Source: Myxococcota bacterium
GTDB taxonomy: Bacteria; Myxococcota_A; Polyangia; Polyangiales; Polyangiaceae
Direction: 5' to 3'
DNA: 64,000 nt
Assembly (NCBI GenBank): GCA_048498935.1
Contig: JBEHXA010000001.1
Location: 688 to 64,687, forward strand
Shown here: piece by piece, positions 2,579-55,816 of the stretch
Layout of the letters: each line of letters starts with the position of its first letter
Position numbering within the stretch: the stretch's first letter is position 1
The notes under the pieces: generated by a model
Told to the model about the DNA's origin: nothing
Databases searched by the model: none
The model's input: only the letters and a program-made list of their open reading frames with translations
Translations under genes and position numbers: made by a program

Positions 2579-2684
2579 TCGTCCACTTTACTTGCGCGCC
2601 GCCGCGGTTCAAGCACGCGGATGGGCTGGCGGTCTCGTGGGCGTTTCGGGCCCCAGCCCAAGCGCCGTGGGCGAACGGGGGATT

Positions 2685-3623
2685 TCACGCGCGCGGATGG
2701 GCTTTGCGATAGGCTGCGCGGACCCGATCTTGCGAAACGTGGGTATAGATTTCGGTCGTGGCGATGTTCGAGTGACCCAGCAGAGTCTGAACGCTGCGTA
2801 GGTCCGCCCCACCGGACAGCAGGTGAGTCGCGAAAGAATGGCGCAGCTGGTGTGGGTGCACGTGACCGCGGATGCCGGCGCCGCGCGCGGTCTTGCCGAC
2901 GATTTTCCAGAATGCCTGGCGCGTCAGCTTGCCGCCGCGGGGCGACGGGAACAGATACTGCGGCGGATTGCGAGCGCTCCCCTTGGTAGGGCGGCCTTTC
3001 GCCGATCGCGTCGGGGCGGCTTGCTCGGCGGTCACGCGCGCTTCGAGGTAGGCGGTCAGGTGATCGAGCGCGACCTCGCCGAGCGGCACCAGGCGTCGCT
3101 TGTTGCCTTTGCCCAGAGCCGAAACGACACCACGCGCGAGATCGACGTCACCCGGTGTGAGCGAGATGAGCTCGCTCACGCGCAGGCCCGCCGCGTAGGT
3201 CATGCTGAGCATGGCGCGATCGCGTAGGCCCCGGAGCGACTCGGGGTTCGGAGCGTCGATCAGCTCGAGCATCTCGGTCTCGCCCAGTGCGCGCGGCAAC
3301 TTGCGGCCGAAGCGCGGCCGCGCCTGCAGCTCCGTGGGGTCGGCGCGCAGCACGCCCTCGCGCATCAAGAACTTGCACAAGCCGCGCGCGGCCGAGAGGT
3401 GCCGCGCGGTGCTGCGCGGCCCGAGCCCGCCTTTCGACATCTCGCGGATCCACGCCGAGATCACGCCGAGGTCGACTTGCTCCACCTCGCTGACGCTTTC
3501 CTTCTCGGCGTAGCTCAGGAGCTTGGCGAGATCGCGTCCGTAGGCGTCGACGGTGTTTTTGGAGAGCGCGCGCTCGACCCGCAAATGTTGCAGGTAAAAA
3601 TCGAGGGCGGCGTCGAGGCGCAA
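2685..3623 (-). CDS. xerD: Site-specific tyrosine recombinase XerD
   Basis: ERALSKNTVDAYGRDL, YAAGLRVSEL, GKGNKRRLVP, TRQAFWK, HPHQLRHSFATHLL..GADLRSVQTLLGHSNIATTEIYTHV. Confidence 0.92.
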   Translation of the reverse strand: MRLDAALDFYLQHLRVERALSKNTVDAYGRDLAKLLSYAEKESVSEVEQVDLGVISAWIREMSKGGLGPRSTARHLSAARGLCKFLMREGVLRADPTELQARPRFGRKLPRALGETEMLELIDAPNPESLRGLRDRAMLSMTYAAGLRVSELISLTPGDVDLARGVVSALGKGNKRRLVPLGEVALDHLTAYLEARVTAEQAAPTRSAKGRPTKGSARNPPQYLFPSPRGGKLTRQAFWKIVGKTARGAGIRGHVHPHQLRHSFATHLLSGGADLRSVQTLLGHSNIATTEIYTHVSQDRVRAAYRKAHPRA

Positions 3624-40461: not shown

Positions 40462-41574
40462 TCACGGCCCGCAGTAGGGGCTGACTTCGATCCCGCCCAG
40501 CTGGTCGCCGTCCTCGAAGGGCTCGGCGGCCAGCAAGTAAGTCGTGCCCGCTTCGACCTCGAACTCCGTGCCGCCCTGGTGGCATTCCAAGACGTCACCC
40601 GTGCATGCGTCGAGGATCGCAAAGATCGGATGCGTGCCTTGATCCGAGATCCGCACGTTGAAGTGAACGCATCCAGTCGTAGTCGCCGTCCAGCGATAGA
40701 CGCGGTCCGCGCTCGTTCCTTCGGTGTTGCAGGGCAAAGTGACATCGTCACCGTCGTAGTCGACGTGTGAATCCCACGTCAGATCATCGGTGCCGAGGTC
40801 CTCGTCGTACGCGGGCGCCGAGCAGGCCTGCGCGCCAGCGCAAATCGGGGTTGAATCGTCGACCTCATCGTCGTCCAGCACGCTGTCTCCGGCGGTGCCG
40901 TCGCCCGCGCCGTCGTCGAGCCCCACCTCTACCAAGGTCCCGCCGTGCTCACAGGAGCCGCCGGGGGTTAGCGCCGTGAGCCTGATCAAGGAGCTGTAGC
41001 CATCCTGGCCGTCGTTACCGGGAATGCCTTGCGGTCCTTGACCGCCTTGCGGTCCGACATCGCCGCGCGGTCCAGCGCCACCTTGCGGCCCCGTGTCGCC
41101 CTTTGGACCCATATCGCCCTGCGCCCCGGTATCACCCTTGGAACCCATATCGCCCTGGGCACCCGTATCGCCCTTCGCCCCGGTATCACCCTTGGAACCC
41201 ATATCGCCTTGGGCACCGGTATCGCCCTTCGCCCCGGTATCGCCTTGCGCCCCGGTATCGCCTTGCGGCCCGGCTTCGCCTTGCGGCCCTACTTCGCCTT
41301 GTGGCCCCGCCTCGCCTTGTGCTCCGTCGACACCGTTACACAGCAACAAGGTCTCCTCGACTTCGACGTCGTCCAGCACGCCGTTGGCGTCGTCATCAAC
41401 GCCGAACCTCACCAGGTTGCCGCCTGCATCGCAGCCATCGCCCGGCGCTTCGTCCCGCACCGACACCAACACGCTCGCCGCGCCACTCGTCTCAGGGCTC
41501 GCCGTATCATCATCGGAGCACCCAACGATCGCGAGACCCACGAGCATAACCAACGCCGACCGGCAACCGAGCAT
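40462..41574 (-). CDS. Collagen triple-helix repeat lipoprotein flanked by two DUF7151-like acidic Cys-bounded domains
   Basis: IVGC lipobox; about 38 uninterrupted Gly-X-Y triplets; CDAGG..G.DDD.NG.LDD.EVE..C and CEHGG..G.DDG....LDDDEVD..C. Confidence 0.85.
   Translation of the reverse strand: MLGCRSALVMLVGLAIVGCSDDDTASPETSGAASVLVSVRDEAPGDGCDAGGNLVRFGVDDDANGVLDDVEVEETLLLCNGVDGAQGEAGPQGEVGPQGEAGPQGDTGAQGDTGAKGDTGAQGDMGSKGDTGAKGDTGAQGDMGSKGDTGAQGDMGPKGDTGPQGGAGPRGDVGPQGGQGPQGIPGNDGQDGYSSLIRLTALTPGGSCEHGGTLVEVGLDDGAGDGTAGDSVLDDDEVDDSTPICAGAQACSAPAYDEDLGTDDLTWDSHVDYDGDDVTLPCNTEGTSADRVYRWTATTTGCVHFNVRISDQGTHPIFAILDACTGDVLECHQGGTEFEVEAGTTYLLAAEPFEDGDQLGGIEVSPYCGP
40993..41334 (-). repeat. Coding 9-bp-unit tandem repeat (Gly-X-Y) with near-identical longer duplications
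   Basis: Repeated GCCCCGGTATCACCCTTGGAACCCATATCGCC units. Confidence 0.9.
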
Positions 41575-41885
41575 GGCAACCTCTTCCTTTGGAGTGAAGG
41601 CGCTATCCCAGGCGCCGACACGCCAGTACGGACGCCCCCGTTCAACCATAAGGGTTCCCCCTCGAAACGGCAGGCCGACCCGCCGCGAACCCCCGGCATC
41701 GATCTTGAACGAACGCCGTTCGCAGAGCCGCGCCTCCCGTGTCAGTCAGAGCCGTTCGAGCTCATTGCTTCGCGAAGCGCGCAGGCTCTGAAGAAGGAAA
41801 CGATGGCTCGCAACCTTATCAGTCGTCGGCGATGTCTGATGCTGCGGCGAATCTGCCTCCGCTCAAAGTCAGATTGCAGCATTTC

Positions 41886-42193
41886 AGGGGTCGACCCCCT
41901 CAAAACATGTGCGAAGTCGATCGCGAGGGGTTCGACCCCTGAAATGCGACTCGAATTCCAGTTTGCGATGGGGTCGACCGCTCGTTGGTGACGCTCAATT
42001 CCACAACCGAGCGGTTCGACCCCTCTCTTGGTGAAACCAATTCCAAAAAAAGAGGGGTTCGACCCCTCGAAATCTCTCCGCAAAGCAGCAAAGCAGGGGT
42101 CGACCCCCTCTCGGAGCGATTTTGAAGTCGCAAATCAGCGGTCGGACCCTCGCCGACGGCTCACCAGGTTTGCAAAACAGGGGTGGAACCGGT
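41886..42193. repeat. Non-coding array of eight 14-15-bp palindromes (consensus AGGGGT(T)CGACCCCT), period 40-43 bp, with non-identical spacers
   Basis: Copies start at 41886, 41926, 41969, 42010, 42053, 42095, 42137 and 42179; the last two are degenerate. Confidence 0.9.
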
Positions 42194-42467
42194 CGTAAGT
42201 CAGAAAGCCACGGACGGTCTGGTACTAGTCGCGTCAGCGGCCAGCACACGTGGCGACGGGACCCGTTCCGTCTGGGTGCCATGCCTCCCGCTTGAGCGCC
42301 CATGCCCAGTACGTGAGCGACTATCGGCTGAGCAGATCGATTTTCGAGAAATGACCAAGCGAGGACACGAAGGCTTGAGGGGAGGGACGCCCTCTTCTCC
42401 GGCACTCGTCGTGGGAAACGAGAACGACGACGCTTCTTCATCGATAGATGCGGCCGCCAGACCTTGG

Positions 42468-42713
42468 CTAGAAAGGGGCAAAGCGAGCGCGTGAAATGCG
42501 TCCGTCGCGTACTCCCAACCAAATATTGGCATTGCCCCCGCGGCTGTTGCAGTTGGTGCGTATTCGGACCAGCCAGAATCCTTGGTTAATGGCAATTGGC
42601 TCAACCCAGGGCCAGCCACGCGCATCGCACTCCCTGCGCGCCACCTGCAGTAACGCGGCCTCATCGAGCGAAGAAAGCCCCAAGACCGCTCGTAAAGCGC
42701 CCCAGAGTTTCAT
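42468..42713 (-). CDS. Candidate cognate immunity protein of the Rhs toxin (81 aa)
   Basis: ATGA overlap with the Rhs stop; one helix followed by beta strands (ECDARGWPWVEP...WLVRIRTN...ANIWLGVRDGRISRA). Confidence 0.7.
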   Translation of the reverse strand: MKLWGALRAVLGLSSLDEAALLQVARRECDARGWPWVEPIAINQGFWLVRIRTNCNSRGGNANIWLGVRDGRISRARFAPF

Positions 42714-45700
42714 TGGGTTGCTCCGACGTAGAGTGCGCCGCCTACGAAGCCGACGTACACCGTGCCCTCAATGGTAAAGCGCAGGGGCGTGACATATCCG
42801 TGAGTGAACGGAAAGGCAAGCCCCTGCGAAACGCTGCTCATGCCGTAGCCTTGCGCAATCATCTCTTCAACGCCAGCAAGGAGCGCTGAGTTGTTGTATC
42901 CCCAAGTTAGCAAGCGCGCACGTGCGGCCTGAAGTGGATTGGCTCCTGGCGACAGAAAAGCGTGAACGGACTCGTGGCGGAGGACCTGGTTCACTGTGTA
43001 GGGCGACTGCGCGATCTGCTCCAAGTCTAACGTAATCTGCCCGATCGGCGAGGTGCGGCCCAGCGTGCCCTGCGGCAGACGCGCGAACATGACCGCGCCG
43101 GGCTCTTCGAATGTCGTCAGAAGCGCGCCATACCCAATGCGCTGAACAATTGCGGTTGCCAATGGTTTTGCGACCAGGCCGCCTACGCCTCCGAGGGTTG
43201 CGCCGAAAATGATCGCATCCTCGCGCGTCTCCAAATTTGTGAAGGCGCGACCAACTTCAATGGCGCCTCCATCCCAAAGCAGCTGATACACGACATAACC
43301 AGTGCCAAGTACGGCGACCCCGGCAGCGACTCCGGCACAGCCCGGACCTGCGGCGACGCAGACGGCAGCAAGCTTGGTTAAGCCTGCGCCGGCGCCGACC
43401 GCGACCCCAGCCGAAATGCTGCCGAACAACAGTTTCTCGCCTGTGCTGGCAGCCGGGCCGCGCGGTGCCGCGCTGCTGGTGTACTTGCTCTCGGAATAGC
43501 CAGGCTCGTAAGGACCATACGTTGCCACGCCGGCACCTTCAAAGCCGCCGCCAACAGGTGTAGAACCGCCGAAGAAGCCACCCGAGCCGCAAGCAGAAAG
43601 CTCGTCACACGCCTGAAACCCCGTCGGGTCGGTGAAGCGCAGCGGATTGTTGCCTACGTAGGCTTTGAGGTTGAACGACTCGCTGCGGAGCGGCGAACCA
43701 GTGATCGGATCCGAAGATAGGAACTGTCCAACCTGAGGATCGTAGAAGCGCCCGCCCATGTCTACGAGACCATGTTCGGACTCTTGCCAATGGCCAGTGT
43801 AGCCGAGCCCCTTGATCGAGTTTCCACCAACCGTTGAGGCAGCGCCAAAATAGTCGAACTGGCGGCGCTCCACGACGCCTGCCGACTCGTTGGTGACCAG
43901 CTGCACGCTACCGAGATGGTCATCGTGAAAGTACTGCGTGCGCACCTGTTCTGGAGCACCTCCCGGTGGAACGTCGCGGACCACCTCGGCGACCGCGCGC
44001 TTTCCGTTTCCAATCAGATAGTGGTGTGTGGCGCTGCCATCGGAGGTGCTGGTCTCGCGATAATAGAGTTGGCCCCAATACACGGTGGTTGCATCGGGCG
44101 CCCGCTTAACGGTCTTGGTCGCGGTGGCGTCGTACTCGTAGGTCGTCGGCGCTTGAGGATCACTTCCCCAGACGCGTCGCGGCTTTTCGAAGTCTGTGTA
44201 TTCGATGTTGAGTTCTGGAAGAACTCCGACGCTGCGATGGCTCAGTGTGCCGTTTGGATTGTATTCAAAGCTTGAGGAGTCCTCTCCGTTATCAATCGTA
44301 TGCACGGAATGTGGTGCAGTTGAGTCGTAGTTGTACGTCCAGTTGTTGGCATTTACGTGTAGCGAACCGAACGCCGTGTAATCGAAGTCCGCCGTGATCT
44401 GGCTGCCTTCATGAACCTGATCGATGCGCCCGAAAGCGTCGTATTCGTAAGACTCGGCGTTGCCGTAAGAGTCGGACCTGCTCTCTAGGTTTCCGTCGGT
44501 GAAGAAGGTGTGATGGAGTTCCTGGATGGGGTCTTCGTTGGGTAGCCCGGTAGAGATGCCATCGGGAAGCCCTGTGTAAGGATGATAGGTGCGCGTCGTG
44601 GCGAGGCCGTTTCCGAAAGTCTCTACCGTTGGCTGTCCGAAGTCGTCGACTTGGTCCAGTTTCCAAAAGCTAGTCTGCGCTGGGGTCTCGCTGTCGGGAC
44701 CTGACCTGACCTGTTTGAGAATACCGCTGGATTCGTCGTAGACGTTCTCAATCTGGAAGGTGTCGCCTGGGTAGGTGACATAGCGCGGGCGTCCGTGTTC
44801 GTCCCTCTCATCGATCGAGACAACGTGGTCCTCACCGTCGAGCGTTTTGGTGAGCGATTTGACGCGGCCGAAGTCGTCATAGTCCACCGTCGTTGCGATG
44901 CCGTCGGTTGCGTTGAAGTCAAGGCGTTGAGGAAAGTCTTCACGCCAGACCCACGTATCCGAACGATTAGGTTCGTTGGGGGCGCGCGGGTCGACGATGC
45001 GAAAGTGCCTGCGACCAAGACGATCGTAGGTAAAGGTGACGGTCGCGTCAGCGTCGACCGTGCGCTGGAGCTCGCCGAACGGCGTGTAGAAATACGTCAT
45101 CGGATCCGAACCGATATTAGTTCGTGACGCCTGTCGCCCCAGGCGGTCCGATCGCATTTCGCTGACAATGGTCCCTTCGGGCATCCGGATGGCTTGCTCG
45201 AAGCGCGAGAACGGACCGTACTTGTACGCAATTCCCGCCCGTTGCGCAGTCTGGGTCGCCGCAAACTCCTCGGCGAAGCTGACACAGTCTTGTTCACCCA
45301 TCTTGATGGGGTCGCCAGCGAAGAGGATTCGTCCGTGGTAGTCCTTTTCGACGCACCGAGCGCTGTTGTCGGCACCGACGGTGCAGCTCGTTAACCCGAC
45401 GTAGCAGTGGGTGCTCTGCCCGCCGCCCGGTTCGGAGACGAAAGTCAGTCTGTTTTGATTGTCGTAGTCGTATTCTGTGTTGTTATCGACGTTGAACGAT
45501 TTCAGCCAACGCGACCTGGTGGCAACCGACCCTGTCGTGTCGTAGGTGGTGTAGGTCGCGTACGGTATTCCGCCGAAACCAGTGGCGGATTCTGACAGCT
45601 CTCGTCCTAGCTCGTCGTACCGGTGCTTGACGGTGGGGCCGCCGTCGAGCTCTGACACGACATCGAGGCCATTGCCTCCGGTCGAAGGATACGACGTGCG

Positions 45701-48700
45701 TGTCGTGTTGTTATCCGGTGCGATAGTGACGCGGGGCCGACCAAATCCATCATGGACCGCCTGCGTAGTGAGCGTTTTAGAGCCGGTCTTGCCGTGCTCG
45801 ATCGCCTTGGTGATGACGCCAAGACCATGACGGTATTCAGTTTCCTTGCTGTAGCCTTCGGCGTCTGTGATGAGGGCTGGGAAAACTTGCCTGGCCTCAT
45901 CGTAGACCACGGTGGTCGTGCGCTTCTTGTCCTCATCACAACTTGTGCTCCCTCCGCACGTCTCGATCAGCGTGACGTTTCCGTACTCATCGCGTCCCAG
46001 CCGCGTCGACAGCGTATAGGTGGCAGTGTCTGGCTCGATTGTCGTGCGTTCGAGGAGCCCGTTGTCGTAGTACTCGAAAGCGGTTGTTCGCGAAAAGCCA
46101 GCCTGGTGGGACTCACCCGCGATGCCGGACGATGTAACTACTCTTCGCTCGGGTAAGCGGACGAGCCACGCTTCGACGAACTCGGGCCGACTCTCGTATG
46201 CGAAGATTACGTTGAGTTTCTCCTGCTCGTTGCGGCCTCCTCCACTCCAATCAGAGACGACGGACTTCTGGTTGCCGTAGTCGTCGATCTCGATCGTGTG
46301 ATCGACGCGGCCAAGCAGTGTGGATATGCCATCGCGCGTTTCGAATTTGGTCTCTGTTACGATATGCTCGTAAGGCAGCAGCACCCGCGGTGAGTCTGCG
46401 CTTGGCTTGACAGCCCACTGCGCGAATCGCCGCGTGAGGATGCTTCCTTGTTCAGTGGCGGAAAGATCGATGCGCGAGTACTCGCGCCCGGCAAACGGGA
46501 ATGCGCCCGTGTTGGCATCGCGTGTCACGTTGTCGAGATGTGAAACAATCGTGGTGCCGCGATCTAGCTCGGACGCCGCGTGGAAGGAGAATCCGAGGTT
46601 TCCGCGGCCGTTGAGGCCGATCTTTTCTCCGCTGTAGCTGTGCGTGAATTCTCGAATGAATCCAGTGAGATAGCTGGGGCCTTGAAACTCCCGATGACGG
46701 GCCACCAGAGAATGCCGAGGTGTCCTGCAGCGCAAACCGTTGGTGTAGGTGCAGTTTGCGTCAACCGAATTGCTGTAGACGTTCTCGGTAAAGAAGGAGG
46801 CGAGGGGATCGCTGGCAGCCGGTGGATGGTCCGGCACGGATGCGTTCGCGTAGTCGACCTCTATTCGCCCATCCAGGCCATTGGTGACGGCGGTGAGCTT
46901 TGCCACCTGAGGACCTCGACGGATATAGGCGGCCAAGTTGGCCGGTGCAAAACCGCCTGCAGGTTTTTGGACGAAGTCCTTGACGCCGTCGCCGTTGACG
47001 TCCATCGCCAATCCGCGTCCAGCCAAGACCATGCCTACGAAGGTGGTGGGCGGTGCATTGCCGGCAGGGAAATCCCGAACGCGCCAGCCAGAGAAAGTTC
47101 CCCCCAAGGCAGCGTCGGGATTTTCGACTCGTGACTGGAGCCAGCGCCAATTCGCTTCACCAGGACCGGCGATCATGACGTCATCGCGCCCATCGCCATC
47201 GATGTCCACGACTGGTCCGAGAATGTACTGATAGCCTCCCGCGGTTAGGAGGCGCCTGGGCTTGCCATCGACGACAGGCTGGCCGTCAAAAAGGTTGCTC
47301 TCTTCTCGGCAATCAAACGGGTCTTCGGCATCACCCGTACCGAGGCATGTTGAGAGATGGCCGGCATTGTCGTGCGTGACAATATCTGTGAAGCCATCGC
47401 CATTGGCGTCGAGTGGGGTCCCTGACTCGCCGCGCGCTACTGAGACAGGAACGTGAGTCTGGACGACATCGGTGCCGACAGGTCCTTCTTCTCCGTATTC
47501 CGCGTCATCGAAGGTGATGGACAGATAGTCTTCAATGTCCTGAAACTGCTGATTATGATGGTGATACGCATAATTCTGAATCAATAGCGCCTGTTTTCCG
47601 CTTCCGTCGACGTCGGCGGCTATGTAGTGCATGAAGCAAAAGCCGTTGAAATCGATCGGGCGTTCTGTCAGGTCGGGCAAGTGGACGAGCGTCCACGTCC
47701 AGGGCCCCTCATGGACATAGTAACCTCCTTCGTGCCCACCGGTGCATTTGATGATGTCTTTAACGCCATCGCCATCGGCGTCCAGGATGTAGCTGCGGTG
47801 AATGGGGATCTCGAGGCCGATTGGAGAGGTCGGCGAGGGGACGCCGAGATCGAGAACCTTCAGCTTCGAGTCCTTGTAGGTGAGGACCTGATAGTTGCCC
47901 GCCGTGGTAGCCCCTTCCATGAGGAGGTCGTCGAGCCCGTCATTGTCGTAGTCGACGACGTTGTAGATCTCAGGGGCGTTGTAAACCTTGGGTATGAAGA
48001 AATCGGCGGGAGTCTCGGGTACTACTCGATCTCGGCCCGACATCAGCACCTCGAGGTGCTTGCGCCAGCCGTTTACATTCCCATCCGAAGGCCGTCCGTC
48101 CAGAACGACCATCAAGAGGTCGTCGACTCCGTCTCCGTTCAAATCCGCGGGCATGTCGGGGACTACATCGAATTGCGCACTTTCGGGGTCATTGGGGTGA
48201 AACCCGATGGGCACTCCTTGTGACAATGCGGGGACTTCGTTTTGGTACGAGAAGGATGTGGCTGGCTTGCAGACCATGTCGCTGAAGTTGGTCAATCCTT
48301 CCAGCGCCGGCACACATTCGCTGATTTGAGTCAACCAGCTTGGTCCAGAGTACGCGATCTCGTGGTCCATTCTGTATTCGCGAACGATCGTCGAACCAAC
48401 GGACGTGCGAATCCGTTTTAGAATGCGATCATTTCTAAATAAGACACCGCTGCGGTACCCATCGGTGATGTCGTTGCGTCGCTCGTATTCGAACTCGATC
48501 CGGCTGTCGGGCTCAGTTCCGTCAGTATGCCCTGCGTACCAAATGTTTTTGGGCTGGATGAGCGCGCTCTCCTTCGTGGCAAAGCTCTTTCCGCGAACCT
48601 CGTACTCGATCGTCATGTAGTTGCCGGCGCGGTCCTCGACACGTGTGGCGACCCACAGATCGTTGTGAAAGTTGCTGATGCCGGGTTCTATGAAAGTGAC

Positions 48701-51700
48701 CACGCGGCCGTCGGGATAGAAGGCCCGGTACCCCTTCGACAACCTTTGGTCGATGGTAACGACTTTGGTTCCATCGTTGATTTCGGTCTGGTACTCCGAT
48801 TCAGGTGCGTCGATATCGCTGATGCGAATTAGCCTCGCGCCATCGAGGCAGAGCCTGTCCGACTGCGCAGGACCAACGGCTTTCCCGTCTTGGGAAATCG
48901 TTGCCGGGCAGCTGGTGATCCGCGGGAGACCCGTCAAGGACCAGCCCTGGCCGAGGTCTCCGTTGCCGTTCGCGCTATTGTAGTAGAGACTCAGTCGAGG
49001 TTGCATCTCGCCACGACCTGGCGGCACCAGGAGCGGAATGGTGTACGTCGCCTGTCCGTTGTGAGTGACGGCGAATGTGCCGTCGATTGTTCCGGAGCGT
49101 TGTGTGGCGTAGTCGGAGGAAGGGATGCCCGGAGGGGGAGATGACGCGAGTTGGAAATTTCCGATACAGCGTTGCTCGGGGCCTTCGAATTCGTCCGGAA
49201 GGCAGGTTCCGCAGCTCCCATGGCAGCCGTCGTCGCCGTAGTCCTTCCCGGCGCAGTCGGGTTCACAGGCTTCGCAGAGTCCGCAGGCAGACGTCGTCGT
49301 GCCGCAAGGCACGTCCTGGGGGGCGAGCGCGTCGCAGATACGCTGCCGGCAAGCACGGTTCACACCGGTAAGGCCGAAGAGCGGACCGGCGCCCTCGCGG
49401 CAAACAAGTCCGGGGGCGCACTCGCCGTCCTTGTGGCACTCGCCTTCGCGCTCGTTGCAAAGCACGCAGGTGCCGCCGCACCCGTCATCCGAATTGTCTC
49501 CGCAGACTTTCCCGGCGCAGCTAGGCTCACAGTTCGGGAGGGGGTTCTGAGCAAAGCAGAGACCGCAGGGGCTGTCGATTGAGCCGCACCAGGTTCCGAT
49601 AGACCCCAGATCACATCCACCTGCCCAGCAGTATCGGCCGGGCGGCTTGCCAAAAGCCCACCCGCTATCGCTTGGACACACTAGCCCCGCTCGACATGAG
49701 CCATCGGTGCAGGGGTCGCCGACCTCGTCGTCTCCTGCACACACGCCAGCCTGACAAGTTTGGGTAGGAGAACACACATTGGCATTCGCACAGGTCTGCC
49801 CCTCCGACCGACACTTCCCGTCCGCCGCGCAGTACTCTCCTGGCGCGCAATCGGCGAACGTGCTGCAGGTTGAATTGGGGGGCGCCAACTCCTTGGGTAT
49901 CAACAACCCCTCTGGCCCCTGATACAAATAAGGCGGTACGTTGAGCAGCACGCGTTCGCCGACGGTGCCGGCGGCGCCGTCGTTGAAGTACCAGAGCTCG
50001 TCGGTGGGGGCGCCGGAGGGGATGGGGATGATGAAGTGATCCCAGAGGCCGGAGAGGCCGCCGTTGGCGATGTCGTGGGGATTGGTGCAGGCGTGGCCGA
50101 CGGCGTAGTCGGAGAGGTAGCGGGCGGGCTCGGTGACCCAGGCGGTGCCGGCCGCGTTCTTCTTGTTGCGGAAGAAGGTGCCGTCGGATTGGGACCAGCC
50201 GACGACTCGCGTGGTGCCGGCTGGCACGAAGAAGTAGGCCTGCCAGCGGTAGTTGAGGGCGAGCGGTTGGTCTTTGCGTCCTACCGGAATGGCTAGAGCC
50301 GTTCCATCCGGCACGTTGGCGTACATGCGACTGCCGGAATCGTCCAGGTCGAGGCGGTAGACCGCGTTCGGTAGAGCGTTGTCGAAGACCCAATCGGTCT
50401 CGGTTTCGGGTACGGCGTCCGACAAGAAGCGATACTCGAGGCCGACGTTCGGTGTGCTCGGCAGCGAGAGCCGCCCGGCGAGGATTTCTCCCGGAGCGTA
50501 TTTGATGACGTGCGCGGTCAGCGGGCCCGCGGAGCTCGGGCGTTGGAAGAAGAAGTAGTGCGGTTGCCGGGTGTAGATGCTTTGGAGTCGCTTCGGCAGT
50601 GTGGGCGTGAGCTGGTACGGCACCAAGTCCCGCGAGAAGTCCTTGATGAGCGTTGGATCGACGCCCGTGTCGAGGATGGGTACGTTGGCGGCGCCAGCCG
50701 TGACGTAGCCGTAGATCTCCTCGGGTGAGGGGCTGGTGCCGGTCTTCATGGGGTTGCAGCCGGCAGGCGGCGTGGCGCCTGAGCACGTGCCGCACGTGGC
50801 CGTCGCGGTCGCGGACGGGCACGTGGGGTTCCAGACCGGCATGTCGCAAGCGGGGCCGCTAGTGGGCTCGACGGTGCCCGTGCAGTTCGGCACGCCTTGG
50901 ACAATTTCTGTGATGGCGTCGTACGACTCGAGGATGCGGCGGTCGCGCGTTGCGTAGGTGAACCGCAGGAGGTCCCTGAGTTGGCTCTGCTCGCTATTGG
51001 GGCTTTGCGCGTCGCAGCGATTCCAGAACTTGCGGCTGAGCTCGAGGTAGCGCGTGTAGACGGCGAGATCGTCGAGGCGCAAGCGGATGCGCTGGTTGAC
51101 GGTAGTGTTCTCCGTCGTGGCCTCGTAGGCCTTCTTGAGGGCGCGGTACATCACGCCGACCATGTTGTCGCTCCACAGCGCTCGGTCTTCGGTCACCTCA
51201 TAAAACTTGTTCATGTCGCCCGCGGCCGACCCGAACGCTTTGGTCAGGAAGTCGCTGCGATAGGTGGCTGCGTTGACTGCGCTGGGAGTATCCAGATCCC
51301 AGAGCGCGTTCGATAGAGCCCACCAGGCCGGTCCGGACGCGCCGAACCCCCAGTTCACGTTGAGCTCGTAGCGACGCACGCCGAGGTCGTAGAAGGTTCG
51401 AATGCGATCAACGATGGACTGCGTCGAGATTTGAGCTTGGCCCGGGAACTCGTTGGCACTGCCAGAGATGGCATCCGTGATGCCCGCCTCGAAGCCTGCG
51501 CTGCCCCAGCCGCGCACCCGGTTCTCGAGCGCGAACGGGATCGGCGCCACGTACGTGGTGTGGACGTTGACGATGGCGTTCTGCCTGAGCGCGATCGTCG
51601 GTGCATCCGCAGAGTCGTAGAGGAAGTCCGCAACGACGACTTTCGTCGGTTGCGCTTCAGCGGCAGCGTTCAGGATGGCCGCAACTCGGTTGGAGATGTT

Positions 51701-53269
51701 GCGGAACGTCGGGTCGTTGACGTCGTTGCAGTTCAGGCCAGTTCCGCTGCTGTCGGGCACCGAAACCCAAGTGACGTTGGCCGTCGGCGAAAGCGAGAGC
51801 CTGGTCGCGGCGTTCTGCTCACTTGCCCACCTGTTGACTATCTTTTGGACCGTCCAGTCCTCACCGGCCGCGTTGGCAACGCCAGTCAGGCAGAGTTGTC
51901 GATTTCCGGGGCTGGTACCGGGGTTGGTGGAGAGCGCCGGCGGGAACGTGACGCCATACTTGTTCTGCCACCACGTCACGACCTGGGCGTAGCTGCCGCC
52001 CAGAGCCAGAGCCGTGGATGTGTACAGGCGGTTGTGCTTGCGCCAGGCGTCGAAGTAGCTGTTGCTGACGGTGGTGAAGCCGGCTTCCCAGGAGTCGCCT
52101 GGGAAATTCAGGGTGCGCGACGGGACGGCGGGCTTCTCGTCGACGGCCAGCGAGAGCGGCTGCTGAAGGGTCGCAGGCTCCGGAAACACTTCCCAAGTAG
52201 GGCTCGGAAAGTAGTGGCGATACCCGATGCGGGCGAGCAGATCCGAGACCGCGTCTTGCAGGGCGTCGACGGTGGCGCCGGCCACGATGACACGGTTCGA
52301 GTTTTGAGGCGTGTGGAGTACGTATTGTTCCGCCAGCTGGAGGCGTTGAGGGCGAAGCACGCCACCTGCCAACGTATCGTTCGGGCGGAAATAACCTTGG
52401 TATGGCCAGCCGGTGTTCGGAAAGTCACCGTCGATGCCGAGCGAAATGCCTGAAGGCGTATTGGTCGCAGCGGCCACGCTGAACTGTGTGCCAGTCAGGC
52501 CCTTGATCTTGTTGAGCTTGTCGCGCAGGTCGTTCGCGATCGCGACGATCTTGTTCTGTAGGTTCTGGTCGGTATGGGGAGCGATGACGATCGACAGAAC
52601 CGCATCGTTAGAGGAGACGAGCGTGACCGGGCCCGGAGTGGGGGGTGTGCACGGCGCACACGAGCCGCCGCAATCGACGGCCGTCTCGTTCCCATCCTTC
52701 ACGCCGTTCTGGCAGGTGGAAGCCCAGCAGACATCGGTGCCGGCGGGGAGGTGGAACGCGGGGCCGTTGCCGTTGCCGCAAACGAGACCGGGCTGGCATT
52801 CCTGGACGCTGTCGCAGTCGCCTTCGCCGGCGCTGCAGGGGCAGTCCGTGCTGCAGTGCGAGGTGCTGCCGTTCGAGGTGTCGCAGGTAACGGTGCAGTC
52901 TGAGCCGCAGGGACCGCCGCAGTCGATTGAGGATTCGCCCCCGTTCTTGCTTCCGTCGCTACAAGTGCTCGGAGCGCAGGCGCCTCCGCTGAAAGGGCCG
53001 CGCTTGGCGAGGTTGCCTGCAACGCAGGTGTAACCTGAAGCGCACTGAGAAGAGTCGGTGCAGGGGCCTTCACCGAGCCCGCAGAGGTGCGAGTTACTCG
53101 CGCCGCAGTAATCGGGGTCTCCGACGGCCGCACCGGGCGTCCCCTTCATCGCGCTTTGATGAATCGCCCCGAGCTCCTCGCCGCCACCACCGTCGACCTG
53201 CGAAGAGTCGCTGCACGCGAGCAAAATGACACTCGCCCAAGCCGCCCAAGTCCATGCGCCCCAGTTCAT
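42710..53269 (-). CDS. Giant Rhs/YD-repeat polymorphic toxin: lipoprotein signal, Cys-rich repeats, DUF4838-like module, SpvB, FG-GAP repeats, YD shell, Rhs core, C-terminal HExxH zincin
   Basis: ILLAC19; GQATYTIPLLVPPGRGEMQPRLSLYYNS..GNG.LGQGWSL; DLNGDG/DVNGDG repeats; YD repeats; GYTGH...MGGRFYDP..GQFLSSDP...N..AYVGNNP.RFTDPTG; LRHESVH...EEMIA. Confidence 0.92.
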   Translation of the reverse strand: MNWGAWTWAAWASVILLACSDSSQVDGGGGEELGAIHQSAMKGTPGAAVGDPDYCGASNSHLCGLGEGPCTDSSQCASGYTCVAGNLAKRGPFSGGACAPSTCSDGSKNGGESSIDCGGPCGSDCTVTCDTSNGSTSHCSTDCPCSAGEGDCDSVQECQPGLVCGNGNGPAFHLPAGTDVCWASTCQNGVKDGNETAVDCGGSCAPCTPPTPGPVTLVSSNDAVLSIVIAPHTDQNLQNKIVAIANDLRDKLNKIKGLTGTQFSVAAATNTPSGISLGIDGDFPNTGWPYQGYFRPNDTLAGGVLRPQRLQLAEQYVLHTPQNSNRVIVAGATVDALQDAVSDLLARIGYRHYFPSPTWEVFPEPATLQQPLSLAVDEKPAVPSRTLNFPGDSWEAGFTTVSNSYFDAWRKHNRLYTSTALALGGSYAQVVTWWQNKYGVTFPPALSTNPGTSPGNRQLCLTGVANAAGEDWTVQKIVNRWASEQNAATRLSLSPTANVTWVSVPDSSGTGLNCNDVNDPTFRNISNRVAAILNAAAEAQPTKVVVADFLYDSADAPTIALRQNAIVNVHTTYVAPIPFALENRVRGWGSAGFEAGITDAISGSANEFPGQAQISTQSIVDRIRTFYDLGVRRYELNVNWGFGASGPAWWALSNALWDLDTPSAVNAATYRSDFLTKAFGSAAGDMNKFYEVTEDRALWSDNMVGVMYRALKKAYEATTENTTVNQRIRLRLDDLAVYTRYLELSRKFWNRCDAQSPNSEQSQLRDLLRFTYATRDRRILESYDAITEIVQGVPNCTGTVEPTSGPACDMPVWNPTCPSATATATCGTCSGATPPAGCNPMKTGTSPSPEEIYGYVTAGAANVPILDTGVDPTLIKDFSRDLVPYQLTPTLPKRLQSIYTRQPHYFFFQRPSSAGPLTAHVIKYAPGEILAGRLSLPSTPNVGLEYRFLSDAVPETETDWVFDNALPNAVYRLDLDDSGSRMYANVPDGTALAIPVGRKDQPLALNYRWQAYFFVPAGTTRVVGWSQSDGTFFRNKKNAAGTAWVTEPARYLSDYAVGHACTNPHDIANGGLSGLWDHFIIPIPSGAPTDELWYFNDGAAGTVGERVLLNVPPYLYQGPEGLLIPKELAPPNSTCSTFADCAPGEYCAADGKCRSEGQTCANANVCSPTQTCQAGVCAGDDEVGDPCTDGSCRAGLVCPSDSGWAFGKPPGRYCWAGGCDLGSIGTWCGSIDSPCGLCFAQNPLPNCEPSCAGKVCGDNSDDGCGGTCVLCNEREGECHKDGECAPGLVCREGAGPLFGLTGVNRACRQRICDALAPQDVPCGTTTSACGLCEACEPDCAGKDYGDDGCHGSCGTCLPDEFEGPEQRCIGNFQLASSPPPGIPSSDYATQRSGTIDGTFAVTHNGQATYTIPLLVPPGRGEMQPRLSLYYNSANGNGDLGQGWSLTGLPRITSCPATISQDGKAVGPAQSDRLCLDGARLIRISDIDAPESEYQTEINDGTKVVTIDQRLSKGYRAFYPDGRVVTFIEPGISNFHNDLWVATRVEDRAGNYMTIEYEVRGKSFATKESALIQPKNIWYAGHTDGTEPDSRIEFEYERRNDITDGYRSGVLFRNDRILKRIRTSVGSTIVREYRMDHEIAYSGPSWLTQISECVPALEGLTNFSDMVCKPATSFSYQNEVPALSQGVPIGFHPNDPESAQFDVVPDMPADLNGDGVDDLLMVVLDGRPSDGNVNGWRKHLEVLMSGRDRVVPETPADFFIPKVYNAPEIYNVVDYDNDGLDDLLMEGATTAGNYQVLTYKDSKLKVLDLGVPSPTSPIGLEIPIHRSYILDADGDGVKDIIKCTGGHEGGYYVHEGPWTWTLVHLPDLTERPIDFNGFCFMHYIAADVDGSGKQALLIQNYAYHHHNQQFQDIEDYLSITFDDAEYGEEGPVGTDVVQTHVPVSVARGESGTPLDANGDGFTDIVTHDNAGHLSTCLGTGDAEDPFDCREESNLFDGQPVVDGKPRRLLTAGGYQYILGPVVDIDGDGRDDVMIAGPGEANWRWLQSRVENPDAALGGTFSGWRVRDFPAGNAPPTTFVGMVLAGRGLAMDVNGDGVKDFVQKPAGGFAPANLAAYIRRGPQVAKLTAVTNGLDGRIEVDYANASVPDHPPAASDPLASFFTENVYSNSVDANCTYTNGLRCRTPRHSLVARHREFQGPSYLTGFIREFTHSYSGEKIGLNGRGNLGFSFHAASELDRGTTIVSHLDNVTRDANTGAFPFAGREYSRIDLSATEQGSILTRRFAQWAVKPSADSPRVLLPYEHIVTETKFETRDGISTLLGRVDHTIEIDDYGNQKSVVSDWSGGGRNEQEKLNVIFAYESRPEFVEAWLVRLPERRVVTSSGIAGESHQAGFSRTTAFEYYDNGLLERTTIEPDTATYTLSTRLGRDEYGNVTLIETCGGSTSCDEDKKRTTTVVYDEARQVFPALITDAEGYSKETEYRHGLGVITKAIEHGKTGSKTLTTQAVHDGFGRPRVTIAPDNNTTRTSYPSTGGNGLDVVSELDGGPTVKHRYDELGRELSESATGFGGIPYATYTTYDTTGSVATRSRWLKSFNVDNNTEYDYDNQNRLTFVSEPGGGQSTHCYVGLTSCTVGADNSARCVEKDYHGRILFAGDPIKMGEQDCVSFAEEFAATQTAQRAGIAYKYGPFSRFEQAIRMPEGTIVSEMRSDRLGRQASRTNIGSDPMTYFYTPFGELQRTVDADATVTFTYDRLGRRHFRIVDPRAPNEPNRSDTWVWREDFPQRLDFNATDGIATTVDYDDFGRVKSLTKTLDGEDHVVSIDERDEHGRPRYVTYPGDTFQIENVYDESSGILKQVRSGPDSETPAQTSFWKLDQVDDFGQPTVETFGNGLATTRTYHPYTGLPDGISTGLPNEDPIQELHHTFFTDGNLESRSDSYGNAESYEYDAFGRIDQVHEGSQITADFDYTAFGSLHVNANNWTYNYDSTAPHSVHTIDNGEDSSSFEYNPNGTLSHRSVGVLPELNIEYTDFEKPRRVWGSDPQAPTTYEYDATATKTVKRAPDATTVYWGQLYYRETSTSDGSATHHYLIGNGKRAVAEVVRDVPPGGAPEQVRTQYFHDDHLGSVQLVTNESAGVVERRQFDYFGAASTVGGNSIKGLGYTGHWQESEHGLVDMGGRFYDPQVGQFLSSDPITGSPLRSESFNLKAYVGNNPLRFTDPTGFQACDELSACGSGGFFGGSTPVGGGFEGAGVATYGPYEPGYSESKYTSSAAPRGPAASTGEKLLFGSISAGVAVGAGAGLTKLAAVCVAAGPGCAGVAAGVAVLGTGYVVYQLLWDGGAIEVGRAFTNLETREDAIIFGATLGGVGGLVAKPLATAIVQRIGYGALLTTFEEPGAVMFARLPQGTLGRTSPIGQITLDLEQIAQSPYTVNQVLRHESVHAFLSPGANPLQAARARLLTWGYNNSALLAGVEEMIAQGYGMSSVSQGLAFPFTHGYVTPLRFTIEGTVYVGFVGGALYVGATQ

Positions 53270-53347
53270 GTCCGGAGAAATACGCCAAGTTGGCCGCGTT
53301 GGTCACGCCTAAAGATTAAGCGGCGCGCAAATCTTACTTGTTTGGCT

Positions 53348-53560: not shown

Positions 53561-55816
53561 CTAGGGCGTTACCGGCGCAATGAAGCACTCGTTGTTGGCA
53601 GCTCGGCCCAGAATTTTGAGGCCGTCGCCGGAGATGTAGGGGCCGGGCGGGTAATAGTCGGCAAACCAGGTGTCGGCGTGGGCGTTGGGGTAGGGATTGA
53701 GCCCGGCTGGAAGCACGTCGTGCATGGGCCGGATGCCGCCGGCGCGGGACCAATAGAACGGAAGGTAGCGGTTACCGTCGTCGAGCTGGAAACCGACGCC
53801 TGCGTCTCCTGCATCGTTCATGTCGAGCATGGCGACGAAGAGCTCGAAGCTCGCATACGGGCACTCCGAGCTTTCGAGCGGCGCGTCGGGAATGCAACCG
53901 ACGTTTTCATCGATCCAGCCGCCGTTGTGGGCGTAGAAATAGGCGACCTTCGAGCCGTCTGCCGACATCGCGGTCACGCGCAGGTAAAAGCTCGCAAAGT
54001 CCGCCTCGACCAACCCGCCCGCCAGGCTCCAGGCCGAACGACCTCGGTCGCGGCTGAATTGAGCGGCCGTACCGGCATCGTTGAGCTGAGCGTCAATGAA
54101 GTTGGTCATGACGCCGAAGGTTGCGACCGTGCCCAGCTGCGTGAAGCCGTCGCTGGTCCAACGAAAAGGTTGCGCGGTTTCCGGCTGGTGCGCGAAGACG
54201 TTGTCGTTCGTCCAGCCCACGGCAACGGAACCATCCAGGCTCGAGGCGAAAGGTACGTAAGTACTTCCAAGCCCTTGAATGCCGCCGGCCGCGGTCCAGC
54301 GATACATCTCGCTGCCGAGTGCGGAGCCGCTGTTCCCGAACACCACTTTGCCGTCGGGCGAAAGAGCGTGCGGCTGATTGCTCACCGCACCACCGGGCAG
54401 ATCGGGCAGCGCTTGCCAACCGGTGGCTGCGGTCCACACGCCTTCTTGCGCCAGTACGGTTTGCCCGTCCTTGCTGAAGCCGAGCGGCGTACATACGCCG
54501 AGGTGTTGCACGGGATCGGCAGGTGCTTCGACCACGTTGATGCTGGCTGGGTCCGAGATGCTTTCGGATGACACGATCGTCGTGCCGGCGGCGCGCACCA
54601 GCACTCGCACGTCACGCGGGCCGAGTGGCGCGTCCGCTGGTGGAGACCAATCGCAAGTGGGTGAGCTGGAATAACGGCAGACGGGGGTCCAGCTAGCGGA
54701 CATGGCCGTCTTCACTTGGAACTGATACTCGGGACTGGAGCAGTCGGCGGTGGCCGTGAACGTGGCCGTGCCGCCCGGGGTGACGCTTGCTGGTGCCGTC
54801 ACGCTCGCAGTCATGCAGGAATCGGCGAAGTGTCGGGTCCCCTGCTTCGCGCTATACACCTGCGACGTCCCTTGTGCCTTCACGAGTGCACGAATGAGGT
54901 GCGTGCCGGTGAGGCTCGCTGTGTGCCACACCGTCTGCGGGCTAGGTGAGCCCGCCACCAACACTTCGGCCGTGCCGTCCGGTGCGATGTCTTCAAACCG
55001 GTATTCTGGCACGCCACCGCCCGAGCAAACGGAGGTGGCGGTGACGGTGTAGTCTGGGCCAACCTTGCCGACCTTAATGCTCGCTGCTGCGCAGCTTGCT
55101 CCACCCAGCTTGAAGGGCGTGACGACCTCCGCCTCCTCCAGCTTGTAGCCCCGTTGGCGTACCGTGACGCGCACGTCGCTAGCGCCAGCCGGAGTGCCCC
55201 CCGAGCTCCAAGCCTGCTGTGGTGACGTCTGCCAACTGCCAACGGGCTCATAAACGGTCGCGCCGGGTTTGCGCACCTCGAAGTAGTATTCGGGTACGAC
55301 TCCCGCATCGCAAGTTGCGGCTGCGGTGAAGCTGACCAGGTCGCCTGGCTCGGGGATGTTCGGCGAAATTCCGACGCTCGCGCTCGTGCACGCACGGCCG
55401 ACGGCGTAGCGCAGTGTCTTCTGGAGGTCGATTGCCGCTTGCCCGACTCGCCGCACATTCAGCAGTAGCTTGTAGTTGCCTTCTTGAGTGAGCGCAGAGG
55501 TATTCCAGTTGCAGCTGCTGCTGGTCTGCCAGTCACAGGGGATGCTCTTGCTGTTGGTGCGCGGAGCGAACACGGTGAAGCGGTAGTCGAGCGCATCGCT
55601 TCCGAGGCAGGAGGCGGTGCTGGTCAACGTGACGCCACCGGCTAGCGCCGGCTGGCGCGGCTGTGGACTCGCTTCGAACGTCGCCGAGCAGTAGCCCGTC
55701 AATTCTTGCTCCGAGCTGCCCAAATTCTCCTCCCTCGGTGGCTGCCCGTCACCACAACCGAGCACGGCCAGCGCACTGAGACTCAGAACCCCTAAACCCG
55801 TCCCTACGCTCCGCAT
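53561..55816 (-). CDS. Lipoprotein with tandem Ig-like (Y_Y_Y-type) domains and a C-terminal HAF-type beta-propeller
   Basis: VLGC lipobox; repeated C..AS....PEY.F.V....W units; WTAATGWQAL, ALSPDGKVVFG, RWTAAGGIQGLG, SSLDGSVAVG. Confidence 0.75.
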   Translation of the reverse strand: MRSVGTGLGVLSLSALAVLGCGDGQPPREENLGSSEQELTGYCSATFEASPQPRQPALAGGVTLTSTASCLGSDALDYRFTVFAPRTNSKSIPCDWQTSSSCNWNTSALTQEGNYKLLLNVRRVGQAAIDLQKTLRYAVGRACTSASVGISPNIPEPGDLVSFTAAATCDAGVVPEYYFEVRKPGATVYEPVGSWQTSPQQAWSSGGTPAGASDVRVTVRQRGYKLEEAEVVTPFKLGGASCAAASIKVGKVGPDYTVTATSVCSGGGVPEYRFEDIAPDGTAEVLVAGSPSPQTVWHTASLTGTHLIRALVKAQGTSQVYSAKQGTRHFADSCMTASVTAPASVTPGGTATFTATADCSSPEYQFQVKTAMSASWTPVCRYSSSPTCDWSPPADAPLGPRDVRVLVRAAGTTIVSSESISDPASINVVEAPADPVQHLGVCTPLGFSKDGQTVLAQEGVWTAATGWQALPDLPGGAVSNQPHALSPDGKVVFGNSGSALGSEMYRWTAAGGIQGLGSTYVPFASSLDGSVAVGWTNDNVFAHQPETAQPFRWTSDGFTQLGTVATFGVMTNFIDAQLNDAGTAAQFSRDRGRSAWSLAGGLVEADFASFYLRVTAMSADGSKVAYFYAHNGGWIDENVGCIPDAPLESSECPYASFELFVAMLDMNDAGDAGVGFQLDDGNRYLPFYWSRAGGIRPMHDVLPAGLNPYPNAHADTWFADYYPPGPYISGDGLKILGRAANNECFIAPVTP

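Follow-up and report, generated by a model that had tools for sequence, protein, structure and literature searches.

A predicted lipoprotein Rhs toxin from a Polyangiaceae-like myxobacterium with an exchangeable front end built around a probable glycosidase-like pseudo-enzyme

Described relatives of the toxin

Toxins of the TcdB/TcaC type were defined as a class of polymorphic toxins by Zhang, de Souza, Anantharaman, Iyer and Aravind in 2012 and also occur in delta-proteobacteria (PMC3482391); they combine a signal peptide with an SpvB domain, an integrin-like propeller, RHS repeats, a variable C-terminal toxin and a downstream immunity gene. The same layout is found in P0001, a protein of 3519 amino acids (aa) encoded by one uninterrupted open reading frame (ORF) at positions 42710-53269, minus strand, of a 64,000-nucleotide (nt) stretch of contig JBEHXA010000001.1 (C1), which is called the window here and belongs to the metagenome-assembled genome (MAG) GCA_048498935.1 (G000) of a Polyangiaceae-like myxobacterium. 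P0001 has the features of the class, namely an export signal, SpvB with propeller, RHS/YD repeats with a core ending in DPxG[LF], and tips that vary among its homologues; it differs by about 1390 residues inserted between the signal peptide and SpvB, which hold a lipobox, two Cys-rich stalks and a catalytically dead (as judged from its residues) module of the DUF4838/GH115 fold, and by the independent recombination of this N-terminal block relative to the shell. We think it rather probable that P0001 is a lipid-anchored single-chain TcB/TcC-type Rhs polymorphic toxin, exported by Sec and signal peptidase II (Sec/SPII), accompanied by a small coupled immunity gene, aimed at neighbouring bacteria and fitted with a recognition module derived from a glycosidase. 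Coordinates refer to the window, and all parts of the toxin lie on its minus strand.

Three other groups of toxins are close enough to be compared. In the TcB-TcC cocoon of the Photorhabdus and Yersinia Tc toxins, as in P0001, an SpvB N-terminus, a propeller gate of FG-GAP repeats, a TcdB_toxin_midN region and a YD shell are combined with a core that cuts and encloses the cargo; in P0001, however, B and C form one chain, predicted to be lipid-anchored and with a large extension at its N-terminus; searches of the MAG revealed no TcA, and the tips of the family are typical antibacterial toxins with immunity genes (AHH with Imm11; a weak Tlde1-like match lies below cut-off). SGS1 and SGS4 (PDB 8FJP, 9ON3; PMC9935623) are, like P0001, single chains, of about 3400 aa, with an Rhs/YD shell; they carry carbohydrate-binding receptor domains on the shell, and their cargo begins with predicted membrane helices that are buried in the shell and is cut by the aspartyl protease of the core. 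They differ in being eukaryotic proteins of bacterial origin that have no lipobox and no glycosidase-like module and whose receptor domains are inserted into the shell. Rhs4 and Rhs5 of Myxococcus xanthus, about 4000 aa long and equipped with a signal sequence, act in kin discrimination without a type VI secretion system (T6SS); recognition and delivery of such very large myxobacterial Rhs proteins are stated to be unknown (PMC10433427, PMC10047993). They resemble P0001 in being myxobacterial and giant and in having a signal sequence, a likeness drawn from description and not from sequence; they are located on Mx-alpha prophages, whereas no prophage genes are present at the P0001 locus, and a survey of 400 other genomes of the phylum revealed no fusion of the N-terminal module to an Rhs shell.

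Finally, the SitA toxins (PMC5562445) are myxobacterial, lipobox-bearing polymorphic toxins with a downstream immunity gene which, like P0001, have neither Lys at +2 nor Ala at +7; they differ in having no Rhs or SpvB domains and in being confined to species with traAB (PMC5562445), and no TraA-like ORF was seen among the PA14 ORFs inspected here.

In the sequence-only reading of this DNA, P0001 had been put forward as a candidate new delivery system, which goes too far: the class with signal peptide, SpvB, propeller and RHS repeats had already been defined (PMC3482391), giant T6SS-independent Rhs toxins of Myxococcus are known (PMC10433427), and on present evidence P0001 is not a categorically new delivery system. 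New are the lipobox-anchored front end, the glycosidase fold turned pseudo-enzyme, and the recombination of the front end against divergent shells. The family makes the open question of how giant myxobacterial Rhs toxins recognise and enter their targets testable, as it offers a handle in the form of a well-folded, strongly conserved dead glycosidase module, placed in a lectin slot, coupled to a lipid anchor and shuffled among at least five shell lineages. It is also a clear example from nature of a toxin that has taken over a glycoside hydrolase fold as a pseudo-enzyme, and it shows that recombination of polymorphic toxins is not confined to the C-terminal tip.

The homologue family

Eleven full-length homologues (3475-3812 aa), from independent metagenome assemblies (Logan, ENA, JGI), have the whole build in common, i.e., lipobox, Cys-rich stalk, DUF4838/GH115-fold module, second Cys-rich stalk, SpvB, FG-GAP propeller, YD shell, Rhs core and variable tip; both the lipobox and a core end of the form DP[ST]G[FM] are present in 12 of 12 full-length members. 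The N-terminal module (N-module) is 45-94% identical within the family, with a mean column identity of 59%, and a shorter protein, P0013 (1504 aa), matches it at 65% identity. The only named genome with a relative of this fused clade is a Polyangiaceae MAG, where a match to the N-module only runs off the end of a 9-kb contig. In the survey of 400 other genomes of the phylum, all occurrences of the module were stand-alone ORFs of about 780-1010 aa with at most 31% identity, from which we conclude that the fused form is a narrow lineage.

Behind the point of core cleavage the family behaves as polymorphic toxins do: after DP[ST]G[FM] the tips differ in all members (15-26% identity in the last window), and six tip types are distinguishable among the 11 homologues. 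AHH nuclease, papain-like Tox-PL-2 and DUF2380 tips score above the Pfam cut-off; deaminase-like, Tox-HDC-like and Tlde1-like matches are weaker, and several other tips have no assigned family. In P0002 the AHH tip is followed by an Imm11 gene only 2 nt downstream, which shows toxin-immunity pairing in a close homologue, and small ORFs lie 7-16 nt downstream of P0011, P0008 and P0003. The lipoprotein-type, single-chain B-C (TcB/TcC-like) Rhs toxin with variable tips that had been read from the DNA is thus supported, and the proposed search for variable N-modules and tips was productive on both counts, with variable tips inside the family and other N-modules on related shells.

A glycosidase fold without its catalytic signature

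The N-module (residues 215-1130; 49880..52627) is a four-domain, glycosidase-like assembly of about 916 aa, as delineated by an AlphaFold2 model, Foldseek and 544 relatives; it consists, in order, of a GH20b/GH67N-like alpha/beta domain, a TIM barrel, a helical bundle, a Cys-containing linker and a beta-sandwich. The barrel is of the DUF4838 type (PF16126; residues 354-690; 51200..52210). A Pfam scan of the whole of P0001 did not report DUF4838; when residues 205-800 were scanned alone the family was found with 27.5 bits against a cut-off of 26.6 (E 2.2e-6), the match covering profile positions 1-324 of 325. The DUF4838 profile missed even the toxin gene itself when used on the genome, and because the Pfam match is this weak, the genome survey was made with a protein query.

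The assignment is nevertheless solid, because three lines of evidence agree. A full HMMER pass over 1.8 billion representatives gave the 544 relatives of the N-module (E down to 1e-46); of ten stand-alone relatives that were sampled, DUF4838 is matched by nine (by seven with E 1e-14 to 1e-32), and the first domain of some is GH20b- or GH67N-like; and the AlphaFold2 model, built on a 72-sequence alignment, is of high quality (predicted local distance difference test, pLDDT, 88.4; predicted TM-score, pTM, 0.91) and finds GH115, then GH84 and GH67, as best PDB matches with Foldseek (E ~1e-12). The same group of structural neighbours, headed by GH115 (4C90), has been described for Sp_0475, a characterised DUF4838 enzyme (PMC10570127). 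A PDB profile search with the 72-sequence alignment matched the GH67 N-terminal domain alone, so that there was no direct template for mapping the active site. The earlier description of a DUF4838/GH20-like region of about 700 aa therefore stands as to kind, on profile, relatives and model alike, and falls short as to size.

Enzymes of this group (GH163, BT1035; GH185, Sp_0475; GH115, GH84, GH67 and GH20) share with the N-module an N-terminal alpha/beta domain, the TIM barrel, and helical and beta domains; they are free enzymes, whereas the N-module is fused to a toxin, and GH163 and GH185 keep Asp, His, Tyr, Glu and Arg at the mouth of the barrel, which in the N-module are gone and replaced variably. 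The N-module, in short, has the fold of GH163 and GH185 and not their conserved active-site residues. This was analysed in an alignment of 13 fused modules and 59 stand-alone relatives, the latter characterised by the motifs GH.Y, PSDGGGW, YAY..H, R[ED]Y...W, AE and R..LW. Of 38 polar or aromatic columns conserved to at least 80% in the stand-alone relatives, the fused clade keeps 26, mostly invariant, and loses 11, ten of them in the barrel: the invariant Asp and signature His, Tyr, Glu and Arg residues. Six of the ten lie at or just past predicted strand ends (module positions 212, 278, 336, 385, 423), and the strand ends of such a barrel usually form its catalytic face. Scored over 11 signature residues, P0001 retains one, while 52 of 59 stand-alone relatives retain at least nine, and the Asp is present in 59 of 59; in the fused family the same column reads A, A, A, D, T, V, A, V, P, S, S, G, V. 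Most lost columns vary freely inside the family (1.3-2.6 bits), and the degenerate crown of the P0001 barrel, as located by comparison of columns with the 59 stand-alone relatives and by the strand ends of the model, is made of G425, P444, Q458, A497, L550, S553, A600, N637 and N654. From order and spacing in the alignment, the lost His, Asp and Tyr would correspond to H227, D309 and Y436 of Sp_0475, in which the exchange D309A lowers kcat 7800-fold (PMC10570127). Judged by these residues, the N-module is a pseudo-enzyme.

It might be argued that the module is still an enzyme, with a rebuilt active site, which cuts a polysaccharide of the target (capsule, exopolysaccharide or lipopolysaccharide) so that the toxin capsule reaches the membrane. 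The whole four-domain GH115/GH163/GH185-like fold has been kept, with high model confidence; the mean column identity given above is considerable, barrel residues including E360 and D599 are invariant, and DUF4838 is a highly diverse family in which GH185 itself employs unorthodox residues (PMC10570127). Yet ten signature barrel residues are gone, among them the Asp found in every one of the 59 stand-alone relatives, and what replaced them is not conserved among family members, which favours relaxed constraint over a new catalytic set; further, the closest stand-alone relatives are partly degenerate already. A maximum-likelihood tree separates the fused modules from the rest by a branch of 100% support; their nearest stand-alone relatives are P0056 (1012 aa) and P0098 (1021 aa), both of which retain only four of the 11 signature residues but still have the Asp; decay of the active site may predate the fusion to the toxin. 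We consider a rebuilt enzyme quite improbable. Of the earlier proposal that the module binds or digests glycans of the target surface, digestion is thus disfavoured, the signature residues being lost and their positions free to vary, and binding remains plausible in view of the lectin modules that relatives carry in the same slot (see below); the N-module probably recognises targets rather than digesting their glycans.

Exchange of the front end among divergent shells

Comparison of the P0001 gene with that of P0002 (blastn, and protein identity in windows) delimits a recombining N-terminal cassette which begins 6 nt before the ATG and ends at codon 1123 (49900..53275). Within it the DNA is 90.9% identical, beyond codon 1123 no DNA similarity is detectable, and the genes upstream of the two toxins differ; protein identity is 92-97% up to about residue 1000, 73% from 1001 to 1200 and about 27% from there on. 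Among the shells of the 12 members, at least five lineages can be told apart, which are mutually 24-32% identical: P0001, P0003 and P0008 form the first, P0002, P0005, P0009 and P0011 the second, P0007 and P0010 the third, P0004 and P0012 the fourth, and P0006 alone the fifth; the first of these is nearer to P0164, a protein with carbohydrate-binding modules (CBM), than to the other shells of the family. Shell types are scattered over the tree of N-modules, which, together with the identity break between P0001 and P0002, indicates that front end, shell and tip assort separately. These gene comparisons show the N-terminal 1123 residues to recombine as a unit and to have been joined to at least five lineages of shells.

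A sharp end of the cassette at codon 1123, in a sequence taken from a metagenome bin, is also what would be expected if the ORF were an assembly chimera of an N-terminal lipoprotein gene and an unrelated Rhs gene. However, P0003 and P0008, which come from other assemblies, combine this N-module with the same type of shell, eight further members combine it with shells of other types, the reading frame being continuous in every case, and P0002 was assembled separately in three sequencing runs; with only 91% identity to its nearest relative, the cassette offers no shared repeat in view that could have misled the assembler. Such an artefact is hardly credible. The ORF is a single one, as had been claimed: it is one open frame, its GC content at third codon positions (GC3, 0.73) is in line with that of adjacent genes, and its build recurs in independent assemblies.

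What else can occupy the position of the N-module was surveyed by searching with the P0001 shell alone. The closest shells beyond the family are parts of other large proteins, several of them with a lipobox: P0164, whose shell is 51% identical to that of P0001, has the lipobox AAAC25, CBM6/CBM35 and an adhesive domain before an SpvB domain that starts at residue 1173; P0187 has a lipobox and ConA-like lectin domains (SpvB start 1175); P0177, in which no lipobox was found, has a ConA-like lectin domain and PD40 repeats (SpvB start 1205); and P0198, also with no lipobox found and with SpvB not matched, has a discoidin domain. Other relatives of the shell carry Ig, Kelch, RCC1 or PQQ propeller domains. 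By domain content, then, the N-terminal slot before SpvB is a general site for binding modules, and the overall design appears widespread; the presence of binding modules in this slot of relatives supports a recognition role for the dead glycosidase module.

Alternatively, the N-module might work in cis, in that it spaces, folds or exports the capsule or holds it in the envelope or exopolysaccharide of the producer, recognition being the task of other parts, e.g., the propeller or the surface of the shell. Lineage-specific N-terminal domains have indeed been proposed as surface anchors (Zhang et al. 2012, PMC3482391). The combination of lipobox and Cys-rich cassette also heads an unrelated RCC1-repeat lipoprotein, so that the N-terminus is in part a generic stalk, and the N-module, with 45-94% identity, is far more conserved than the shells are (25-30% between types), as would suit a housekeeping function in the producer. 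Against this, the lipid anchor already tethers the protein, and classical carbohydrate-binding and adhesion modules, which usually look outward, occupy the same slot in the nearest relatives; nor is the conservation decisive, since a conserved recogniser with variable toxins is the pattern of the contact-dependent inhibition (CDI) and MafB systems too. A role in cis strikes us as unlikely, less so than renewed catalysis, and target recognition by the N-module is preferred.

Shell, core, cargo and immunity gene

The remainder of P0001 was borne out as the B-C shell that had been read from it, with Pfam and NCBIfam matches for SpvB, FG-GAP repeats, YD repeats and Rhs core. The SpvB/TcaC N-terminal domain (PF03534, E 3.2e-11) comprises residues 1403-1451 (48917..49063), and the genome search found it at the same place. 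It is followed by the integrin-like beta-propeller with its TcdB_toxin_midN signature (residues ~1700-2150; 46820..48172); FG-GAP repeats are matched at about 1700-2100 (PF13517, E 4.2e-9; PF01839, E 1.4e-6) and PF12256 at 2088-2144, with 26.3 bits against a cut-off of 24.8. The RHS/YD-repeat shell (residues ~2151-3139; 43853..46819) matches PF05593 (E 3.7e-6), and homologues carry the TEN_YD-shell family PF25023 in precomputed annotation. The Rhs-associated core (residues 3140-3218; 43616..43852; TIGR03696 at 3140-3217, E 2.5e-17) ends in DPTGF (3214-3218), presumed from its sequence to be the site of aspartyl autoproteolysis; it aligns with the cores of SGS4 and SGS1, which were the sole PDB sequence match to it.

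Behind the core lies the variable cargo of 301 aa (residues 3219-3519; 42713..43615). Near its beginning are Gly/Ala-rich hydrophobic segments (residues ~3280-3370; 43160..43432; three 19-residue windows with a Kyte-Doolittle mean of 1.5-2.0), and at least one such segment is present in 10 of the 12 tips of the family. The cargo had been called a protease tip, for which there is nothing beyond the HExxH motif HESVH at 42962-42976 (residues 3432-3436): the tip of P0001 has no match in Pfam, NCBIfam or PDB and no homologue in a search among proteins of 1111-3535 aa, and Atlas gave only sub-threshold leads to Tox-MPTase4 and M48 at 0.78-0.79. A single-sequence AlphaFold2 model of the tip (pLDDT 33.5) was unusable.

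The candidate immunity protein is encoded by an ORF of 81 aa (42468..42713, minus strand) whose ATG overlaps the TGA of the toxin gene (ATGA); it gives two faint, independent leads to Imm-NTF2-2 (Pfam E 0.16; Atlas score 0.82). A second candidate for the immunity gene, an ORF of 154 aa at 42200-42664, was rejected as an off-frame artefact, as it is rich in Arg, Ser and Pro and its GC3 is 0.59, compared with 0.71-0.78 in real genes.

Lipid anchor and stalks

P0001 begins with a putative type II signal peptide (53213..53269), the hydrophobic N-terminal stretch of which runs, as read from the translation, into the lipobox LLAC that had been claimed, with Cys19 as predicted site of lipidation; the lipobox is present in all 12 family members. 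In M. xanthus, lipoproteins with Lys at +2 or Ala at +7 are retained in the inner membrane (PMC5562445). Position +2 is Ser in P0001 and Ser or Gly in all 12 members, and +7 is Val in P0001; Ala at +7 occurs in P0007 only. By this rule, which is that of Myxococcus and may not hold in Polyangiaceae, P0001 is predicted to be sorted to the outer membrane.

Cys-rich repeats flank the N-module on both sides, in agreement with the sequence-only reading. Stalk 1 (residues 40-214; 52628..53152) contains the repeats C..GEGDCD..C..GL.C and C.NG.KD..ET..DCGG.C, and stalk 2 (residues 1131-1390; 49100..49879), which has a weak Dickkopf_N-like match, shares with it a 42-residue motif at 43% identity; an NCBIfam search of the stalks gave no family. 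The unrelated RCC1-repeat lipoprotein mentioned above is encoded on contig C207 (3763-6789, minus strand) in a frame of 1009 codons, with a lipobox, a post-lipobox stretch and three Cys-rich cassettes before the RCC1 repeats, and its N-terminus is 44% identical to residues 17-209 of the toxin; the cassette is paralogous, and the stalk a building block used in both lipoproteins. The stretch behind the lipobox (53150-53212) holds a motif, approximately ..LG...[QE].AL[TS].., which recurs across the toxin family and is found also in the N-termini of P0164, P0165, P0177, P0184 and P0192, lipoprotein Rhs relatives with other N-modules, and in a lipoprotein of 751 aa encoded upstream of the toxin (53561-55816). 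This motif may be a signal for sorting or surface export.

Proposed mechanism and helper systems

P0001 would stand on disulfide-rich stalks in the outer membrane and would probably face outward. The aspartyl protease of the Rhs core would cut off the cargo of about 300 aa, which would be held in the YD shell behind the propeller gate, and the dead GH163/GH185-like module would serve in lectin-like recognition of, or adhesion to, a surface polysaccharide of the target, in the slot where the nearest relatives have CBM6/35, ConA-like or discoidin domains. Once contact is made, the cargo's leading Gly/Ala-rich hydrophobic helices could insert into the membrane of the target and bring the toxin domain to the other side. 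This step is modelled on mosquito SGS1, for which membrane entry has been proposed for helices buried in a shell that is decorated with receptor domains (PMC9935623). Recognition, localisation and killing are predictions for P0001. Taken further, the family might represent partner-free capsules, i.e., lipid-anchored B-C cocoons with an interchangeable front-end cassette for aiming, which would be a dead glycosidase serving as a lectin in P0001 and CBM, ConA-like or discoidin modules in relatives, and a cargo that crosses by its own buried hydrophobic helices, a generalisation we regard as tentative and rather doubtful. If true, target range and toxicity would be determined independently of each other through free recombination of front end, shell and tip, and there would be an explanation of how the very large myxobacterial Rhs toxins with Sec export recognise their targets and get into them.

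Several points weigh against the reading of P0001 as an anchored toxin with a dead recognition module. The n-region of its signal peptide has neither Lys nor Arg, and surface exposure of the lipoprotein is an assumption. With regard to the module, Sp_0475 was mapped by order and spacing and not by direct alignment, strand ends were the sole basis for judging whether the lost residues cluster in space, and E360, R385, W409, N413, R414, W501, N534, W588 and W657 of the barrel are still invariant, with which an altered catalytic site could be compatible. The 81-aa ORF has no significant family match. Lastly, the source MAG, a metagenome bin of 7.65 Mb, is fragmented into 868 contigs and 93% complete, the searches for TcA had no positive control, and an ORF with an Hcp domain exists elsewhere in the genome (contig C40), so that absence of a T6SS is not proven.

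The last three points would also be in favour of a delivery that needs machinery encoded elsewhere, be it a T6SS, a TcA-like pore or TraAB-mediated exchange, with the N-terminus merely parking the toxin; lipoprotein toxins of Myxococcus are passed on by outer-membrane exchange (PMC5562445). The Hcp-domain ORF (309 aa; full domain, E 3.4e-29) is convergent to another Rhs gene, which is cut by the contig end (C40, 2-7229; open frame of 1952 aa). However, it has a hydrophobic N-terminus and no T6SS genes nearby; VipB/TssC, PAAR and Phage_GPD/VgrG profiles found no match in the 93%-complete MAG, and a Pfam scan of P0001 revealed no PAAR or VgrG domain. The linkage to PAAR or VgrG and the T6SS that would be expected of a T6SS effector are thus not found, as far as an incomplete MAG with one Hcp-domain ORF permits, and the cargo of T6SS does not travel by a Sec/SPII signal. 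The TcA profiles PF18276 (TcA_TcB_BD) and PF03538 (VRP1) had no match in the MAG, yet neither detected anything in any control genome; no TcA gene is adjacent in four homologue loci, and no neighbours are common to the loci. A search with the PA14 profile, rather than with TraA/TraB profiles, gave 17 matches in the MAG; of the matching ORFs of complete size, the best four show neither the Cys-rich repeats nor the C-terminal sorting tag that TraA should have. The giant Rhs toxins of M. xanthus act without T6SS (PMC10433427). We hold a need for external machinery to be very unlikely.

It had been stated that no PAAR, VgrG, Hcp or TcA gene lies in the window, which holds, the sole Hcp match of the MAG being on C40 and not on C1. 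The genome-wide check that had been suggested is more equivocal: TssC, VgrG, PAAR and TcA had no match, which agrees with the earlier view, the Hcp-domain ORF does not, and for TcA the control is lacking. That the N-module acts in place of TcA claims too much, as at most the receptor-binding half of the role of TcA is replaceable by it, and there is nothing pore-like in the module.

Neighbouring sequences

None of the flanking genes is conserved between homologue loci; the upstream 751-aa lipoprotein and the other neighbours of the P0001 gene were considered as partners and rejected because none recurs beside homologues. An ORF at 40462-41649 (minus strand) encodes a lipoprotein-like protein of 395 aa with DUF7151, collagen triple-helix repeats and a galactose-binding-like domain associated with the type IX secretion system. 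Downstream of the toxin-immunity pair, at 41881-42193, is an array of GGGGT(T)CGA(A)CCCC palindromes spaced by about 42 bp, a motif with 16 occurrences on seven contigs. This array, too, was rejected as a part of the toxin system; it is a dispersed repeat element, which recurs on contig C242 in five copies beside an IS3-like transposase, where much of the sequence matches the array of the window, and is present on contig C312 as well.

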